From contig CAVWCX010000003.1 in the NCBI GenBank assembly GCA_963753595.1, positions 58,755-122,754 of the forward strand: a DNA stretch of 64,000 nucleotides, written 5' to 3'. The notes under the pieces are model-generated. The model worked only from the letters and a program-made list of their open reading frames with translations. It did not search any database and had not been told where the DNA came from. Within the stretch, counting starts at the first letter, position 1. Every line of letters begins with the position of its first letter. The stretch comes from Candidatus Methanoperedenaceae archaeon. GTDB taxonomy: Archaea; Halobacteriota; Methanosarcinia; Methanosarcinales; Methanoperedenaceae. Of this stretch, positions 38,360-56,002 are shown piece by piece. The position numbers and the translations under genes are program-made.

Positions 38360-39788
38360 TCATATACGTTCCAGCCTCTTTACTATTCCCTCATAAAACC
38401 CGCACCATTCCTCAAAACCACACCCTGAGTTCATTGGCATCCCTGCCCTGAAATCCCTGGTAATATCAAAATACTCCTGTGAAAACCACGGCGCTTTGAA
38501 ATCAAACTGGTCAAAGTCGCCCCAATCTTCAAGAGTGTTAAGGGGCTTTAATCCGTTCTTAACTGAGGCATCGTATAGTTTAGTATGCGGATATGGCGTA
38601 AAAAACGATAACAAGATGTCCATGTGTTTAAGTTTCCCCATTTTTCCGTATGCACAAATGATATTATTGATCTCCTCAAATGTCCTTGTTACTTCTTCTT
38701 TTGCATCCACACCCGGAATTCCTACCATGAACGAGCCGCGAATATCAATATCATGTTCTATGCATTTATCAATGCACATTTTTATCTGCCTGGTGTTCGC
38801 TCCCTTATTCATCACATCAAGCGCTTCCTGGAGGCCGCTTTCAAAACCAAAGAATATTTCATGGATGCCGGCTTTTCGCAAAAGCCCCCAGACCTCATCA
38901 TCCATTCGCGATAGCTGCTCCATTCTGCCATTGACGCTTGTGAGGCGTATTCCCGGGTTTTTTTCGATCAGGAGCCTGCAAATCTCCTTCACTCGTTTCA
39001 CATTGATGAAAAAATCACTGTCCTGGATCATGAATGTATCGATATTATAGTTCTTTGCAAGGTATTCAAGTTCCAAAACCACTGTTTCCGGAGAAAGTCC
39101 TGACCAGCGCCTGCCGCAAAACAAGGGCTCTGAACAGAAATCGCATCCTGCCGCACAGCCAATGCTTGAATAATAATCGATGCACCGATTTGCGAATTTA
39201 TATCCTTTGACGTGCCGCTCGACATCGATCATGTCATATGGAATGGGCGGAAAAGAATCAAGGGGCTTGAATTCCTGCCTCTCGTTTTCAATTATTTTTC
39301 CACCTTCTTTATAAGAAACACCCTTAATTCCTTTAAGGGATTCGTTTTTCATGAGCTTTTCTACGACTTCTTTAAAAGGGGTCTCTCCCTGCCCCCTGAT
39401 AACAATGTCGATATAAGGATTATTTAGTGTTTGCAGGGGTTCGGTAGATGGGTGATATCCTCCCCAGATGACCGGAAGATTCTGGATAAAGTTCCTTGAC
39501 AGCTTTGCAGACATCGATACCATCACTGATCTGGTAGCAGGTCATGCTGCTGACTGCAAGGCACAGGGCGTTCTTGCTGGCTGTGATGATATTTTGTTTA
39601 TAATCGTTATCTACTACGGCATTAACTATCTTAACGTCAAATTCATCACGGACCATTCTACCCAGGGCAAGAAGCGATAGCGGAACATTGACAAGTGGTA
39701 CCTGCAGGGACGTTGTCATTTTATTGGGGATGGCAACAGGATGTTCCACCGGCATCGGGTTAAATAAAATTATCGTGTTTTTTTCCAT
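38360..39788 (-). pseudogene. B12-binding radical SAM protein, frameshifted at about 39482
   Basis: The N-part (PLSLLAL...AVKELYP) joins NLPVIWGGYHPS...GCAAGCDFC if one base is removed. Confidence 0.82.
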
Positions 39789-46462: not shown

Positions 46463-47002
46463 TCATTCACATGAACAGAAGGACCCTTGATTTTCTTTTC
46501 GAAGCCTCACCCTCAATACATCTGCTGCACTGCTTATATCAGTTTCGTAAAGATCCCTGATCATTGAATCATATAAATCAGAGTAGATTTGAAGAAGTTC
46601 TTTTTCTGCTTTATCTCTCAAATCCGTATTTTCAGGCGCCAGAATTATATGAAAATCATCCTGGTGTGTTATTACAAATTTTCGCAGGTCTTCAACTTTT
46701 TTCATTTCCGGCAATAACCTGAGCACCCGGATAATGGGAGTGCCTCTTTTTTTTCGCTGCCTTGGACCATCGTGAATATATAATCCAACGAGTCCACGGT
46801 CTGTTTTTATTATTGCGGTCAAAGTGAGAGCCCCTGCGCCGCTGCACACTTCCACTTTTTCGCTGAGTATAGAATAACCACCATCGGATAATTGTTGTTT
46901 TGCAAATTGCATGAGAGATATTTCGTATTCCTTTTCAGGAACACCCCAGTAATCGTTCATGACAGCAAGCTGGTACGGATGGATATTTATAATTATCTTC
47001 AA
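46463..47002 (-). CDS. Hypothetical protein, 5' end uncertain
   Basis: 179-codon ORF co-oriented downstream of the mutase genes. Confidence 0.55.
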   Translation of the reverse strand: MKIIINIHPYQLAVMNDYWGVPEKEYEISLMQFAKQQLSDGGYSILSEKVEVCSGAGALTLTAIIKTDRGLVGLYIHDGPRQRKKRGTPIIRVLRLLPEMKKVEDLRKFVITHQDDFHIILAPENTDLRDKAEKELLQIYSDLYDSMIRDLYETDISSAADVLRVRLRKENQGSFCSCE

Positions 47003-47060
47003 GAAGGATTAAACGATATGGAAGCAAAAGTCAAGTCAATACCCATCCACTGCTATAATC

Positions 47061-47471
47061 TCAACAGTTCTTTCCTACTTTTTCTTTTACAAATTTCACT
47101 ATATCCTCTGTGTTCGTACCAGGGCCAAAAATTTCTGCGATATTAATATTTTTCAAAGCAGGCACATCCTCATCTGGTATTATACCCCCCGCAAAAACAA
47201 TTATATCAACCCTATTCTCTTTCAATAATTCCATTATCTTCGGGAAAAGGGTGGTGTGCGCACCTGAGAGGATGGAAAGACCAATAGCATCCACATCTTC
47301 CTGTACCGCAGCCTCAACTATCTGCTCCGGCGTCCGGTGAAGACCCGTATATATAACATCCATTCCAGCGTCCCTGAGCGCTCTTGATACTATTTTTATT
47401 CCCCTGTCATGGCCGTCCAGACCAGGTTTAGCCATTAAAATTCTTATTTTATTCTCCTCCATTTTATTCAT
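47061..47471 (-). CDS. Acyl-CoA mutase small subunit (cobalamin-binding)
   Basis: [10 protein letters not shown] (DxHxxG), [19 protein letters not shown]. Confidence 0.93.
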
Positions 47472-47472
47472 C

Positions 47473-49179
47473 TCAGAAAATTGCTTTCTCCCTGTATTCA
47501 CCATATATTGAACGAAGAACATTGCATATCTCTCCAACTGTGGCATAACATTTAACGCACTCTATTATCGGATACATCAGATTTCCTTCACTTTGTGCAA
47601 CTTTTTTAAGCTCATCCAGCGTATCTTCAACTTTCTTCCTGTCCCTTGTCAGGCGCAATTTCTTCAGTTTCGCGATCTGCTTTTTTTGCACAGCCTCATT
47701 TATCTTCAGCGTCTCTATAGGCCTTATCTCATCCAGGGTGAATTGATTCACACCTACAACGACTCTCTCCTTCTTTTCCACTTCCTTCTGGTACATGTAT
47801 GATGCATCCGTAATCTCTCTCTGGAAAAAGCCGGTCTCTATGCCATTTATCATGCCAGAAAGCATTTTCCATTCTCCACTGCCAAGAGACTCAATAGTCC
47901 CAATATATTTCAAAGCTCTCTCTTCCAGTTCGTTGGTTAATGCCTCAATGAAGTATGAACCCGCCAGAGGGTCAATAGTATTAATCACTCCACTCTCGTA
48001 TGCTATTATCTGCTGCGTGCGAAGTGAAGTACAGACAGCTTTCTCAGTAGGCAGTGCATATGCTTCATCCATCGAATTTGTATGAAGCGATTGAGTTCCT
48101 CCAAGGACTGCTGCCAGGGCCTGAATTGTTGTGCGAACGATGTTGTTCTCCGGCTGCTGGGCAGTCAGGGAGGAACCTGCGGTCTGCGTATGAAAACGGA
48201 GCATCCATGAAGCTGGATTTTTTGCCCCATATTTTTCTTTCATTATCCGCGCCCATATTCTGCGTGCTGCGCGAAACTTTGAAATTTCTTCGAAGAAGTC
48301 ATTGTGTGAGTTGAAAAAGAATGAAAGGCGGGGAGCGAAATCATCAATGTTTAGTTTCCTTTGTAGCGCCGCTTCGACATAACCCATTCCGCTTGCCAAC
48401 GTGAACGCGAGTTCCTGTGTCGCATTCGCTCCTGCTTCTCTCATGTGATATCCGCTTATGCTTATCGAATTCCATTTCGGCATGAACTCACCACAGTACT
48501 CCAGTATGTCCGCTGAAATGCGTATCGAAGGTTTGGGCGGAAATATGAAATTCCCCCTCGCTATATATTCTTTGAATAGATCATTTTGGAGTGTTCCTGT
48601 TAGTTTATCCGCAGTTACGTTCTGCTTTTCCCCTATGAGAATATACATTGCCAATAAAACAGCAGCGGGCGCATTTATAGTCATAGATGTGCTCACCTTA
48701 TCAAGAGGTATACCATTGAAAAGGATTTCCATGTCTTCAAGTGAGTTTATTGATACGCCCACTTTCCCAACCTCTCCAAGCGCACGAATATCGTCTGAGT
48801 CGTAACCCAGCTGAGTGGGTAAATCGAAGGCAACACTGAGACCGGTCTGGCCCTGCGAGAGCAAGAATTTGTATCTTTCATTGGTTTCCTCCGCAGAACC
48901 AAAACCCGCATACTGTCGCATAGTCCATATTCTTCCGCGGTAACCTGTTGGATATATATTCCTGACGTACGGGAACTCTCCGGGGAAACCCAGATCTTCT
49001 GCGTAGTCCATTTTCGCGATATCAGTTGGTGTATAAACCCTTTTTATAGGAATTCCTGAAATGGTCGCAAACGTCTGTTTACCCTCAGGGACTTTTTCGA
49101 GCACTTTCTTGAGAGTTGTGCTCTCCCATTCCTTTGTTCTTATTCCTATTTTTTTTAGCTTTTCTTCTTCAAAAACCAT
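47473..49179 (-). CDS. Methylmalonyl-CoA mutase large subunit
   Basis: [10 protein letters not shown] (Tyr), [33 protein letters not shown]. Confidence 0.92.
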
Positions 49180-49186
49180 ATCAATC

Positions 49187-49528
49187 CTATACTATCGGCT
49201 CGAATTTGAATCCGTATACTTCTCTATTTTCGACTGTGCGCAGCTTCCCCCACACAGGATGCAGTTTCATCCCTGGTTTTGGGTTGTCGGCCATTATTTG
49301 CCCCATTGCCCGGACTTTGTTATTGAATTCCACTATGCCCAGTTTCAATGGGGAAATTTCAATCCCTCTGGGCAGGGCATAGAGCTTCGTAAAGGTGATC
49401 AATTTACACTCATCTCCAAGGCTGACTTCATCAAATTCTGTGTTCTTACAATTCAAACAACGCTCGTGCTTTGGGTACATGACTTTGCCGCAGTGCCTGC
49501 ACCTCCATCCCATCATTTTGTCCTGCAT
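49187..49528 (-). CDS. DUF35 Zn-ribbon/OB-fold protein
   Basis: CRHCG-YP-CLNC plus OB-fold, 1 bp after the thiolase stop. Confidence 0.9.
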
Positions 49529-49529
49529 T

Positions 49530-50696
49530 TCAGTCGCCTCGCTCCAGAATGTGAACAACAGTATTGTTACCAAAACCTCCAAAATTGCATGCCAGTGCTC
49601 GCTGGGGATCCTTCACCTGTCTATCGCCGGCCTCGCCGCGCAGCTGCAAGACCAACTCTACGATCTGGGCAACTCCAGTCGCTCCCACAGGATGACCCTT
49701 CGCTTTTAATCCACCGGAAGGATTTATGGGAAGCTCTCCATCAATAGCTGTGACGCCTTTCTCCACCGCCAATTGCCCCTCGCCCTTTTTGAAAAATCCG
49801 ATATCTTCACTCTGTGCTATTTCCAGGATCTCAAACGCATCGTGCAGTTCGGTGACATCTATATCTCCGGGCTTGAGCTTTGCCATCTTGAACGCGCGCT
49901 CGGCTGCGATCTTTACTGATTTTAAGATTATCGGATCTTCCCGCTCCTGGAGAGTATGGGTGTCTGTTGCATGCCCAAACCCAAGGATTTTTACAGGCTT
50001 TGTAGTGAACTCTTTTGCTTTTTCTGCAGGGCACAAAACTAGCGCTGCCGCACCATCACTTATCGGGCAGCAGTGATAAAGCCGCAAAGGATCAGAAATC
50101 ATAGCTGATGTAATGACATCCTCTACAGTACATAGCTTGTGGATCTGAGCATATGGATTCTTCATACCATTTGCATGGTTTTTCACAGCTACCATTGCCA
50201 GGTGGCGTTCGGTGAGGCTATAGCGCTCCATGTAAAGGCGGGTAAATAGTGCTGCCATCGCAGGCATTGTAGCGCCGTGCACATATTCTGCAGTAGGATG
50301 GTTCACTGTAGACATAAGATCGGAGATTGTGCTTGTATCAACTCCGGTCATTTTCTCCCCACCAACGACGAGCACCAGATCACTTGCTCCAGAAGCCACC
50401 GCTAAAAAGCCATTCTTAACCGCCGATCCCCCTGACGCCGGCCCATTCTCAATTCGCTCTGAAGATGCAGGAATCAGGTTGATCCGATCCACCAGGGCGC
50501 TTGCGATTGCAGCCTGATGGGAAAGCTCTCCGGCAAGCATGTTCCCAACGTAGACTGAATCAAAGTCACGCTCGCTAGTTCCGGCATCGTCGATCGCTTT
50601 GAGCGAGGCCTCCACCAGAATCTCCATCAGGTCTTTTCCATCGAGGCGCCCGAATTTCGTCATGCTGCAGCCAATGATTGCTACGTCTCTCATCAT
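49530..50696 (-). CDS. Thiolase-fold protein (SCP2 type) lacking both catalytic Cys
   Basis: IENGPASG in place of ENACAS, ELHDAF in place of HDCF, SGGL-GHPVGATG retained. Confidence 0.88.
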   Translation of the reverse strand: MMRDVAIIGCSMTKFGRLDGKDLMEILVEASLKAIDDAGTSERDFDSVYVGNMLAGELSHQAAIASALVDRINLIPASSERIENGPASGGSAVKNGFLAVASGASDLVLVVGGEKMTGVDTSTISDLMSTVNHPTAEYVHGATMPAMAALFTRLYMERYSLTERHLAMVAVKNHANGMKNPYAQIHKLCTVEDVITSAMISDPLRLYHCCPISDGAAALVLCPAEKAKEFTTKPVKILGFGHATDTHTLQEREDPIILKSVKIAAERAFKMAKLKPGDIDVTELHDAFEILEIAQSEDIGFFKKGEGQLAVEKGVTAIDGELPINPSGGLKAKGHPVGATGVAQIVELVLQLRGEAGDRQVKDPQRALACNFGGFGNNTVVHILERGD

Positions 50697-51276
50697 GTTC
50701 CTATTTTGGTAAATTTTGCTCTAATTTGCTGATTCATAAAATGAACAGGATCAAATTCTGGTTGTTCCCACAAATCGTATTGTTTGATCTTCTGTATCAT
50801 CAATTGCTTTTGTAAATTTTCTCTTGTATGTCTCAAGCATATTATGCCCATATCCTTATAATATTGCCCACATTAACTCATAAGTCTTGCGCTCTGGTGC
50901 TCAGGTTGTAGAGGTAGTTACCAAGACCCCTTTGAAACAATTGGTAGATTTTTTTTATCTCCTATGTGAGATATGCAACTGAAGAAAGATTTTCGTATTT
51001 GATTCATGTTTTTTATATGTTTGAAAAAAAAAGTCAAATTAGAAAACCGATTTTTTAAGTTAATTGGATTTCTTCATGGAGCACAAAAGTCAACAGACCA
51101 CAGAAATATATACTCATGTGAATAACATGGATATCGGGAAGATACAAGTCCGTTGGATAGCTTCCAGATAAAAAAAGGAGAGAATGATTTAAGATGATAG
51201 TGTTTGACCAGAAGGATGTATATGCAAACATATTACTGAATTGCAAAGGAAATGTGAATAAGTTAAGATATACAAC

Positions 51277-54832: not shown

Positions 54833-56002
54833 ATGGCAATTGACCCTATCTGCAAAACTACCGTTGATGAAAAAACAGCATTCAAATCAGTTTACAAAAA
54901 CAAAGATTATTATTTTTGCTCCGAGAATTGCAAAAAGAAGTTCGATGAGCTTGACAAAAGCGTGATCCGTGTACGGCGTTCACTAAAAGACAAAGAAAAG
55001 ATATCATTCGGGAAGCTAAGGCGTGAGATCATAGAACCTGGCATCTGTACTCTATGTGGGGCATGCGTGGCAAGCTGCGAAGTGCTGTCAGTGGTCAATG
55101 GAAAGCCAGCACTTAAAGGACCCTGTACCGCATGCGGTGTATGCTACAATCAGTGTCCTCGAACCATCACCACGGAATCAAGCCTCATCGGGAATGTGCG
55201 TGACGTCTTTACGGCTAAATCCTTGCTTTCCGAAGTAAAAGGACAGGACGGCGGGGTTGTGACATCCATGCTCCTTTATGCGCTTGAAGAAGGACTGATA
55301 GATAGTGCGATAGTAACCGTAAAAAGCGATGATGAACCATGGAAACCGGTTCCTATCGTTGCCCAGACAAGAGATGATATTTTACTTTCAAGCGGTTCGA
55401 TCTATATTCATTCACTCACGATGGAATCGTTAATGAGCGCAATAAAAAGGGGTTCCCGTTCAATAGGTTTTGTGGGGCCGTCCTGCAATATAGATGCTGT
55501 TCACAAAATGCAGAACTCACCCTATGGATTGCTGCACATGTTCATGAGGGCGAATATCTTAAAGCTCGGACTATTTTGCATGGATACATTTGACTATCCG
55601 GGTTTGAAAATATTCCTGGAACAGAAAGGGTTTCCCCTGTCTTCCATTAAGGAAATGAAGATCCGGAAGGGAAAATTCATAATCAGATCGGAGTCAGAAG
55701 CCACATTTCCTTTAAGTGAACTTGATTTTCTCCGAAGCGGCTCATGCACCGTATGCACAGACCTGACAGCTGAGAAGTCCGACCTTTCATTCGGAAGCGT
55801 GGGATCAAACGAAGGTTACACTACAGTACTTGCACGAACAGGACTCGGTCTTGAACTCCTGCAGGACGCAGCCGACAGGGGCTACATCAAGGTAGAAACG
55901 CTTGAAAGACAGGGTCTTGACAGGGTTCTTCACCAGGCGAAAGCCAAGAAAGTGCAAATGTACATGATAAAGAAAAGAATTGAAACGGGGAAAGGTTTAT
56001 GA
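54833..56002 (+). CDS. YHS domain fused to ferredoxin plus FrhB/FdhB-family F420-binding protein
   Basis: DPIC...YYFCSENC, two CxxCxxCxxxC motifs, GQDGGVVT, VGPSC, GLFC, CTVC-D. Confidence 0.85.
   Translation: MAIDPICKTTVDEKTAFKSVYKNKDYYFCSENCKKKFDELDKSVIRVRRSLKDKEKISFGKLRREIIEPGICTLCGACVASCEVLSVVNGKPALKGPCTACGVCYNQCPRTITTESSLIGNVRDVFTAKSLLSEVKGQDGGVVTSMLLYALEEGLIDSAIVTVKSDDEPWKPVPIVAQTRDDILLSSGSIYIHSLTMESLMSAIKRGSRSIGFVGPSCNIDAVHKMQNSPYGLLHMFMRANILKLGLFCMDTFDYPGLKIFLEQKGFPLSSIKEMKIRKGKFIIRSESEATFPLSELDFLRSGSCTVCTDLTAEKSDLSFGSVGSNEGYTTVLARTGLGLELLQDAADRGYIKVETLERQGLDRVLHQAKAKKVQMYMIKKRIETGKGL

Follow-up and report, generated by a model that had tools for sequence, protein, structure and literature searches.

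What can a thiolase-fold protein do once both catalytic cysteines have been lost, and why is it encoded together with a vitamin B12-dependent mutase? These questions are raised by an operon of four genes in a 64,000-nucleotide stretch of DNA (the window) from a Candidatus Methanoperedenaceae archaeon (assembly GCA_963753595.1, contig CAVWCX010000003.1). The genes encode a cysteine-less thiolase-fold protein (THLx), a DUF35 protein (DUF35x) and the large and small subunits of an acyl-coenzyme A (CoA) mutase (McmA and McmB), respectively. THLx and the mutase are linked in a conserved manner, and the same linkage is seen again in unrelated lineages. By analogy with known enzymes, THLx, DUF35x and McmA/McmB may form a complex that decarboxylates methylmalonyl-CoA, a reading to which a probability of about 0.4 is assigned. 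The nearest named records are those of Candidatus Methanoperedens, in agreement with the probable methanotroph of the anaerobic methanotrophic archaea (ANME-2d) named in a preliminary description of this DNA.

The four-gene operon

The genes of the operon are as follows.

50696..49530, minus strand: THLx, thiolase-fold protein, 388 amino acids (387 from a second ATG at 50693)
49528..49187, minus strand: DUF35x, 113 amino acids, with a zf-ChsH2 zinc ribbon
49179..47473, minus strand: McmA, large (substrate-binding) mutase subunit, 568 amino acids, MM_CoA_mutase/TIGR00641
47471..47061, minus strand: McmB, small B12-binding subunit, 136 amino acids, PF02310 and TIGR00640

All four genes are intact. 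They are separated by gaps of 1 nucleotide (49529), 7 nucleotides (49186-49180) and 1 nucleotide (47472), and the spacing given in the preliminary description was confirmed from the open reading frames and the sequence. The four genes would represent one functional unit composed of a split mutase, a non-thiolytic THLx and a DUF35 adaptor.

Loss of the catalytic cysteines in THLx

THLx contains Thiolase_N and Thiolase_C_1 domains and has the archaeal/SCP2-type thiolase fold. It matches PF00108, PF22691 and PF02803, all above their cut-offs, and NF004720, a "thiolase domain-containing protein" (478, cut-off 420). Its residues were mapped by HMMER alignments to the solved archaeal thiolases 7yvy, 6esq and 4yzo. 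The nucleophilic cysteine is replaced by Pro86 (ENGPASGG aligned to EAACASGG of 7yvy and 6esq), and the acid/base cysteine of the HDCF motif is replaced by Ala287 (LHDAF aligned to VHDCF of 6esq), so the loss of both cysteines noted earlier holds. HDAF is also found in 7yvy, a solved protein called thiolase, in which the nucleophile is kept. The residues His285, Asp286, Asn325 (NPSGG) and His335 (GHP), which are common to canonical thiolases, are retained in THLx and are at least 97% conserved among 81 clade members. His335 and Asn325 presumably form the thioester-enolate oxyanion site known from thiolase enzymology. A clade-specific motif, CNFGGFGNN, begins at C370.

Because both catalytic cysteine positions are replaced, THLx is no ordinary thiolase. 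Source names such as "acetyl-CoA C-acetyltransferase" and strong similarity to archaeal thiolases speak for an ordinary acetyl-CoA acetyltransferase, as given in some database records. That assignment is hardly credible in view of the two missing cysteines, a score of 418 against the equivalog NF053570 (cut-off 600) and the presence of a canonical thiolase elsewhere in the genome. This canonical enzyme (CASG, HDCF), to which THLx is 49% identical, is encoded between 3-hydroxy-3-methylglutaryl-CoA (HMG-CoA) synthase and DUF35 genes on contig C24, and THLx is thus an extra paralogue and not the mevalonate enzyme. No HMG-CoA synthase gene was found around the operon in the window or in 80 related loci, and the earlier statement that this is not the mevalonate locus is upheld. 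A bacterial-type thiolase gene lies between two reductase genes on contig C28 of the same genome.

The 80 related THLx loci are from species-representative genomes and encode proteins with 53-93% identity. Their archaeal hosts are Hadarchaeota, Bathyarchaeia, Asgard lineages and Nitrososphaerota-labelled, Korarchaeota-like and Micrarchaeota-labelled metagenome-assembled genomes; the bacterial hosts include Bipolaricaulota, Thermotogota, Zixibacteria, Eisenbacteria, Gemmatimonadota and Fibrobacterota. The proline, HDAF, NPSGG/NTSGG, GHP and CNFGGFGNN are present in all 80. Among the best 120 matches of THLx in 5.8 billion proteins (66-100% identity), [EK]NGPA was found in 118, threonine at this site in one and no such pattern in one, and HDAF was found in all 120. 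At least 97% conservation was observed at 95 of the 388 THLx positions among the 81 clade members. The ratio of nonsynonymous to synonymous substitutions (dN/dS) of THLx against the 93% and 89% orthologues is 0.13-0.15, and that of McmA is 0.15-0.17. By these measures THLx belongs to a deep conserved clade under purifying selection and is no decayed thiolase.

This conservation bears on the proposal that THLx-DUF35x is catalytically dead and only binds CoA esters or stabilises or regulates the mutase or, in other lineages, a GNAT-fold enzyme. Such a role would be comparable to that of silent thiolase-fold subunits in multi-enzyme complexes, and the loss of both cysteines is in keeping with it. 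In solved complexes (titles of 6esq, 7pxp and 9vbo), DUF35 serves for docking, fusions of DUF35 with the mutase show physical association, and MeaB was not found in the operon or genome of the window. However, drift would be expected at the active-site loops of a mere scaffold, whereas the former active-site loops of THLx are the most conserved parts (NGPASG, HDAF, NPSGG, GHPxGATG and CNFGGFGNN, invariant or nearly so over 53-100% identity), and a relative in the same genus has MeaB alongside THLx. A purely structural or regulatory role is therefore considered unlikely.

Cysteine-less relatives are common in this thiolase superfamily. Among 137 full-length sequences from the 150 best-scoring 50%-identity cluster representatives, 60 have both cysteines, 24 have Cys/Ala and the remainder have Ser, Pro, Gly, Asp or another residue at the nucleophile position.

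The McmA/McmB mutase

McmA matches PF01642 with 746 bits and TIGR00641 with 785 bits, and it is the sole mutase gene in the genome of the window. The specificity residues were read from alignments with human methylmalonyl-CoA mutase (MCM) and with 2-hydroxyisobutyryl-CoA mutase (4r3u). McmA has the MCM-like motifs RQYAGF (Tyr), SVAFD and IARGNF (Arg), plus the histidine of SGYHM, whereas 4r3u has RQIAGF, STDFD and AQKEY at the same sites. The Tyr and Arg of methylmalonyl-CoA type reported in the preliminary description are thus correct, and McmA/McmB is, by its residues, a split B12-dependent mutase of the methylmalonyl-CoA (carboxylate-binding Tyr/Arg) type. We take Phe/Gln at these sites to be the signature of isobutyryl-CoA mutase, and DGHDRG of McmB to fit the B12-binding motif DxHxxG.

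Outside Methanoperedens, the nearest relatives of McmA (63-67% identity) are split mutases named from Syntropharchaeia, Thermococcus, Thermoanaerobacter-type Firmicutes and Atribacteria. In the McmA tree, eight Asgard DUF35-linked sequences form one clade (100/100) and the Methanoperedens and Anaerolineales sequences form another (100/99), while the backbone is unresolved. The protein P0297 is 72% identical to McmA and falls in the same clade, yet it is of the Phe/Gln type (RMFAGLG, AFHMPT, AQKSW), which looks like an apparent specificity switch between close relatives.

No MeaB (PF03308) was found above the cut-off in the genome of the window, and no remnant of it was found in the window. The meaB gene directly follows mcmB in the 89% relative (G008:C26; L127/L119) and is also present in G442, a genome of another family of the same phylum. 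In the 93% relative, no MeaB was found above the cut-off.

The residues of THLx and McmA also bear on the aldol step suggested in the preliminary description, in which THLx-DUF35x would make or break a C-C bond that joins an aldehyde to the enolate of an acyl-CoA, with the mutase acting before or after. According to the available part of PMC12329534, those Cys-less thiolase-fold enzymes that are known to have a DUF35 partner act as aldolases; Ltp2 and Sal are steroid side-chain retro-aldolases that use a tyrosine base in the motif YDHF (Ltp2) or YDCY (Sal). The enolate-stabilising His and Asn are retained in THLx, and aldehyde:ferredoxin oxidoreductase with a ferredoxin is encoded near THLx in six of the 80 loci. 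However, the catalytic tyrosine is a histidine (HDAF) in 80 of 80 THLx loci, and the aldolase reading is weakened because the Ltp2/Sal motif is absent. Ltp2 (6ok1) is a distant match (108 bits, versus 300-322 for archaeal thiolases), the operon has no hydratase partner, no crotonase was found in the genome, and the linked or fused mutases are of the carboxylate-binding type, with substrates that have no beta-hydroxyl group. An Ltp2-type aldol step is thus probably not part of the THLx module, and an aldolase or retro-aldolase of any kind is judged improbable. From the earlier proposal of an undescribed acyl-CoA pathway with an aldol step, a conserved and undescribed module linked to the mutase stands; the aldol step is not supported in the form given there. 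Decarboxylation of methylmalonyl-CoA would fit the context of THLx better.

DUF35x and DUF35-mutase fusions

DUF35x contains a CxxC...CxxC zinc ribbon and an OB fold, with C10, C13, C24 and C27 invariant in 13 sequences. Its sole NCBIfam match is BbsA (48.5 bits, below the cut-off), and it matches the DUF35 chain of 6esq (E 2e-10) and BbsA of 7pxp. In 66 of the 80 loci, THLx is followed by a DUF35 gene at a distance of no more than 100 bp.

When longer proteins were searched with the DUF35x profile, all six matches were fusions of an N-terminal DUF35 to McmA (676-690 amino acids, three sequence groups), and all six are of the Tyr/Arg type. One fusion is 71% and 81% identical to DUF35x and McmA of the window, respectively, and one is named from Freyarchaeota. 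These gene fusions are an argument that DUF35x and the mutase associate physically. In each solved DUF35 complex matched by DUF35x, DUF35 is bound to a thiolase-fold partner, and binding of DUF35 to such a partner is also described in the accessible text of PMC12329534. As solved DUF35 proteins bind thiolase-fold partners and the fusions tie DUF35x to the mutase, a THLx-DUF35-mutase assembly would be the natural arrangement.

Linkage of THLx to the mutase

Among 49 genomes of the genus Methanoperedens, THLx is found in six and the mutase in eight, that is, in all six THLx genomes and in two of the other 43. One of these two carries a 93%-identical mutase gene starting at a contig edge and the other a 42% paralogue. 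THLx and the mutase are on one contig in five of the six genomes, in two arrangements. Three genomes have a co-directional THLx-mutase operon, and in two an Acs-family ligase and the mutase face THLx-DUF35 from no more than about 2.5 kb away, with the two mutase subunits fused in one of them. In the sixth genome, THLx and the mutase are on separate short contigs. In a 71% Methanoperedens lineage (L120, G064:C2), the mutase subunits are fused in an open reading frame of 701 amino acids, and the Acs-family CoA ligase gene lies between the fused mutase and the convergent THLx-DUF35 pair.

None of the 16 genomes that were sampled in other families of the order yielded a THLx copy, and among 401 genomes sampled from the phylum a THLx-like protein was found in only two others. 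One of these, the genome G442, contains a Ser-variant Cys-less thiolase in an operon with the order McmA-McmB-MeaB-THL-DUF35. Across the 80 loci, McmA is encoded beside THLx-DUF35 in nine, which represent two Methanoperedens lineages, an Anaerolineales bin, Helarchaeota and three Promethearchaeota.

Many Asgard genomes contain THLx without a neighbouring DUF35. In four of five tested Asgard genomes of this kind, a DUF35x gene was found directly upstream of an McmA paralogue elsewhere in the genome. These DUF35-linked mutases are of the Tyr/Arg (MCM) type, whereas the McmB-linked paralogues of the same genomes are Phe/Gln. Two to three paralogues of the large mutase subunit are present in each of the Asgard genomes G065-G069 (L131-L140): a Tyr/Arg form after DUF35 without an adjacent B12 subunit, a Phe/Gln form with McmB, and a third that is about 43% identical to McmA. 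The conserved linkage, which the preliminary description had referred to a synteny survey, was thus recovered in the genus, in Asgard archaea, in Anaerolineales, in G442 and in the DUF35-mutase fusions.

In the locus L151 (G378:C9), a Cys-bearing thiolase (EGACASS, HDCF) and a DUF35 follow McmA-McmB-MeaB, in a genome without PF01039. Since G378 pairs a Cys-bearing thiolase with the mutase, linkage to the mutase is not confined to Cys-less thiolases.

Missing enzymes of methylmalonyl-CoA metabolism

Propionyl-CoA carboxylase, biotin-dependent methylmalonyl-CoA decarboxylase and transcarboxylase all require a carboxyltransferase of PF01039. This family was not found in the six Methanoperedens THLx genomes, in G442 or in four of five Asgard genomes. 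No methylmalonyl-CoA epimerase above the cut-off was found in the same six Methanoperedens genomes, no member of the crotonase family (PF00378) was found in the genome of the window, and no SucC above the cut-off was found in the profile search. The gene search proposed earlier for an epimerase, MeaB and a carboxylase likewise gave none above cut-off in the genome of the window.

In the phylum sample, PF01039 is present in 103 of 119 mutase-bearing genomes. The 16 genomes without it include all five of family f13 and all three of family f23. A Cys-less thiolase/DUF35 pair beside the mutase was found only in G000 and G442; G378 has the Cys-bearing thiolase, and the other 13 showed none in the stretches covered. 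THLx as a general solution for mutase genomes without a carboxyltransferase was rejected on this basis (2 of 16 only). The carboxyltransferase-less genomes echo a puzzle in the alkane-oxidising archaea Ca. Alkanophaga, in which mcm is present and pcc and mce are missing, as far as the consulted sections of PMC10322722 go. THLx was not found in the sampled families comparable to Ca. Alkanophaga.

Two further functions have to be considered. In the first, THLx would replace the epimerase by interconverting (2R)- and (2S)-methylmalonyl-CoA. Enolisation alone would suffice for this, and no epimerase above the cut-off was found in any of the six genomes. However, an epimerase is useful only together with an (S)-specific carboxyltransferase enzyme, none of which was found in these genomes, and the alternative GNAT partner of THLx would be unexplained. 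This substitution is very unlikely.

In the second, the pathway would run as biotin-free propionate assimilation, from propionyl-CoA and CO2 via methylmalonyl-CoA to succinyl-CoA. An Acs/PrpE-family ligase is encoded in the cluster of the 71% Methanoperedens lineage and of the Anaerolineales bin, and the alkane-oxidising archaea mentioned above have mcm without pcc and mce. However, carboxylation of propionyl-CoA without ATP is strongly endergonic, the operon has no ATP-grasp or biotin component, and mutase families of the phylum sample without PF01039, besides G000 and G442, showed no THLx. Assimilation by this route is very unlikely as well.

The GNAT partner and other neighbours

A GNAT-fold protein of about 200-230 amino acids is encoded next to THLx-DUF35 in 43 of the 80 loci, McmA in nine and both in none. 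The remaining 28 loci, mostly Asgard or on short contigs, have neither. The confident model of the GNAT partner (predicted local distance difference test score, pLDDT, 89.5) resembles generic GNAT N-acyltransferases with a template-modelling (TM) score of about 0.6, which identifies the fold only and no specific function. No match to the GNAT partner was found in the genome of the window.

In the THLx tree (FastTree), the clade of the window nests (98) inside a GNAT-linked clade of Hadarchaeota and Hodarchaeaceae with 80-86% identity, and its sister is a Hadarchaeota sequence with 86% identity. THLx of the second Methanoperedens lineage and that of the Anaerolineales bin fall together, and the Asgard sequences form a clade of their own. 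As a THLx of GNAT-linked ancestry is thus paired with the mutase, the tree suggests that THLx catalyses the same reaction with either partner.

Other neighbours of THLx in the 80 loci include an Acs-family CoA ligase (nine loci) and FdrA-, AllG- and AllH-like proteins (8, 9 and 11 loci, respectively). An amidohydrolase is also encoded near THLx-DUF35-GNAT loci. The Promethearchaeota loci contain genes for subunits of 2-oxoacid:ferredoxin oxidoreductase, an HdrA/MvhD-like protein and an ADP-forming acyl-CoA synthetase.

Proposed THLx complex and its possible reaction

The favoured reading, decarboxylation of methylmalonyl-CoA, takes the archaeal thiolase/DUF35/HMG-CoA synthase complex as its model, and DUF35x would most likely dock THLx onto the mutase in an analogous way. 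The (R)-methylmalonyl-CoA made by the mutase would pass directly into the active site of THLx and be converted to propionyl-CoA and CO2. The net route would lead from succinyl-CoA to propionyl-CoA without a biotin carboxyltransferase, a crotonase-type decarboxylase or an epimerase. With Pro86 in place, the acyl-accepting thiol is gone, and so is a backbone NH that belongs to the second oxyanion hole. Because Pro86 replaces the cysteine while His and Asn stay, acyl transfer would be abolished and enolate chemistry could persist; an enolate site combined with a partner that makes a 2-carboxy-acyl-CoA would fit decarboxylation. Cys-less ketosynthase-like domains decarboxylate. In other lineages, the THLx/DUF35 core would process malonyl units supplied by the GNAT enzyme. 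That the proteins physically form a ternary complex, that THLx acts as a decarboxylase, which way the flux runs and what propionyl-CoA is used for in the cell are all inferred. The module may possibly feed polyhydroxyalkanoate (PHA) or propionyl-CoA metabolism.

A wider proposal is put forward only tentatively. Here the THLx/DUF35x/mutase complex would channel its substrate, THLx would represent a third class of (methyl)malonyl-CoA decarboxylase, built on the thiolase fold, and the same core would handle GNAT-delivered malonyl units. A variant of this channelling complex that runs in reverse, giving biotin-independent conversion of propionyl-CoA to succinyl-CoA, is less likely. Should THLx prove to be a decarboxylase, it would be analogous to the carboxyltransferase and crotonase types without belonging to either; neither fold is present in THLx.

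A precedent is the Cys-less SCP2-thiolase-like protein TbSLP, for which slow decarboxylation of malonyl-CoA is reported in the available part of PMC12329534.

Several points weigh against the decarboxylase. The precedent of TbSLP is weak: its kcat is 0.005 per s, and CtSal showed no decarboxylation of malonyl-CoA, according to the same portion of PMC12329534. The Acs/PrpE-family ligase in the clusters of the 71% Methanoperedens lineage and the Anaerolineales bin could equally indicate propionate assimilation, that is, the opposite direction, and the aldehyde:ferredoxin oxidoreductase near THLx in six of 80 loci would suit an aldolase. One Asgard genome with the module has PF01039. In 14 other genomes of the phylum with a mutase and without PF01039, no Cys-less thiolase was found beside the mutase, with a flank of only 1.5 kb in several of the stretches examined. 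Because these 14 carboxyltransferase-less genomes show none, the argument from the pathway hole does not generalise and THLx is no general answer to it. VOC-family proteins below the epimerase cut-off exist in the genome of the window, so an epimerase is possible there, and as this genome is 92% complete, the gene absences are unproven.

Surroundings of the operon

One further open reading frame follows the four genes.

47002..46463, minus strand: ORF179, an orphan with an ATG at 46960 and no family

ORF179 begins 58 nucleotides past mcmB. It matched no Pfam or NCBIfam family, had no BLAST match among the 80 related loci and showed no relation to the GNAT partner family; a search of the Atlas gave weak leads only. 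The preliminary description was right that an unknown open reading frame trails the four genes, but ORF179 is not part of the conserved unit and was dropped as a member of the module (no counterpart in 80 loci, and MeaB at its position in G008).

The operon is flanked by genes for an ABC transporter, radical SAM proteins, an M42 peptidase, an FrhB-like protein, a two-component system and others. Because these genes show no evident tie to acyl-CoA metabolism, the operon stands alone. A B12-binding radical SAM protein and an FrhB/FdhB-like protein are encoded within 10 kb of the operon (38360-39526, 54833-56002). The FrhB/FdhB-like protein has an N-terminal YHS domain and ferredoxin motifs, and no tie to the operon was seen.

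A gene remnant is located upstream of THLx (50700-50860, minus strand). What is left matches the first 22 and the last 30 residues of a Cys-rich open reading frame of 146 amino acids, in two frames and with the middle lost. In the 89% relative (L009), this 146-amino-acid open reading frame is present immediately upstream of THLx.

Meaning of the THLx branch

Archaea encode many thiolase/DUF35 pairs, for which the usual annotation is acetyl-CoA acetyltransferase. Several pairs occur per archaeal genome, with an average of 3.8 in Asgard archaea, according to the part consulted of 10.1101/2024.07.05.601840. One large conserved branch of these pairs cannot be a thiolase and is tied to the MCM-type mutase by operon, phyletic pattern and fusion. 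No published description of a THLx/DUF35/mutase system was found, and the supplementary trees of a fatty-acid-synthase preprint may show the clade. An acetone pathway is treated in PMC8084838, which holds no description of the THLx system.

If the decarboxylase and channelling functions are true, a new enzyme class would be added to propionate/succinate metabolism and a widespread misannotation would be corrected. Archaea without a biotin carboxyltransferase and an epimerase would gain a direct route from succinyl-CoA to propionyl-CoA, and the module would be a candidate for how some anaerobic archaea use the mutase without the usual partner enzymes.

Comparison with known systems

The protein ST0096 of Sulfolobus tokodaii (4YZO), named in PMC6392133, is a close Cys-less relative with a solved structure (294 bits). 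It has Ser at the nucleophile position, where THLx has Pro, and HDMA in place of HDCF. TbSLP (5AB4-5AB7) also has a thiolase fold without the nucleophilic cysteine, but it carries YDCF where THLx has HDAF, the match is only 74 bits, and the function of TbSLP is itself disputed. The accessible text of PMC12329534 mentions no DUF35 or mutase partner for TbSLP.

The complexes Ltp2-ChsH2(DUF35) and Sal-Shy(DUF35) (6OK1, 9MYR) resemble THLx-DUF35x in being Cys-less, DUF35-dependent and based on enolate chemistry, as described in the same part of PMC12329534. Unlike these enzymes, THLx has His for the catalytic Tyr, its operon has no hydratase partner or steroid context, and the matches are low (6ok1, 108 bits; 9myr, 98 bits). 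The second catalytic residue is Tyr344 in Ltp2 and Cys304 in Sal; the position of Cys304, the third residue of the motif, is Ala in THLx.

The benzoylsuccinyl-CoA thiolase BbsAB (7PXP) is likewise a thiolase/DUF35 pair acting on a succinyl-CoA derivative. However, BbsB is a true thiolase by its family name and entry title, and THLx reaches 177 bits, with the cut-off at 750.

The succinate-to-propionate operon sbm-ygfD-ygfG-ygfH of E. coli couples methylmalonyl-CoA mutase to a methylmalonyl-CoA decarboxylase. The YgfG-type decarboxylase has a crotonase fold, whereas the candidate THLx has a thiolase fold and would act with a DUF35 adaptor, and the operon in the window has no CoA-transferase.

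The archaeal thiolase/HMG-CoA synthase/DUF35 complex (6esq) is among the closest solved relatives, with 300 bits between THLx and the thiolase chain. In both systems, a DUF35 adaptor ties a thiolase fold to a second acyl-CoA enzyme, and in the archaeal complex we take DUF35 to be the bridge. THLx differs in having neither cysteine, DUF35x lacks about 20 N-terminal residues, and the second enzyme is a B12-dependent mutase, or elsewhere a GNAT-fold protein, in place of HMG-CoA synthase.

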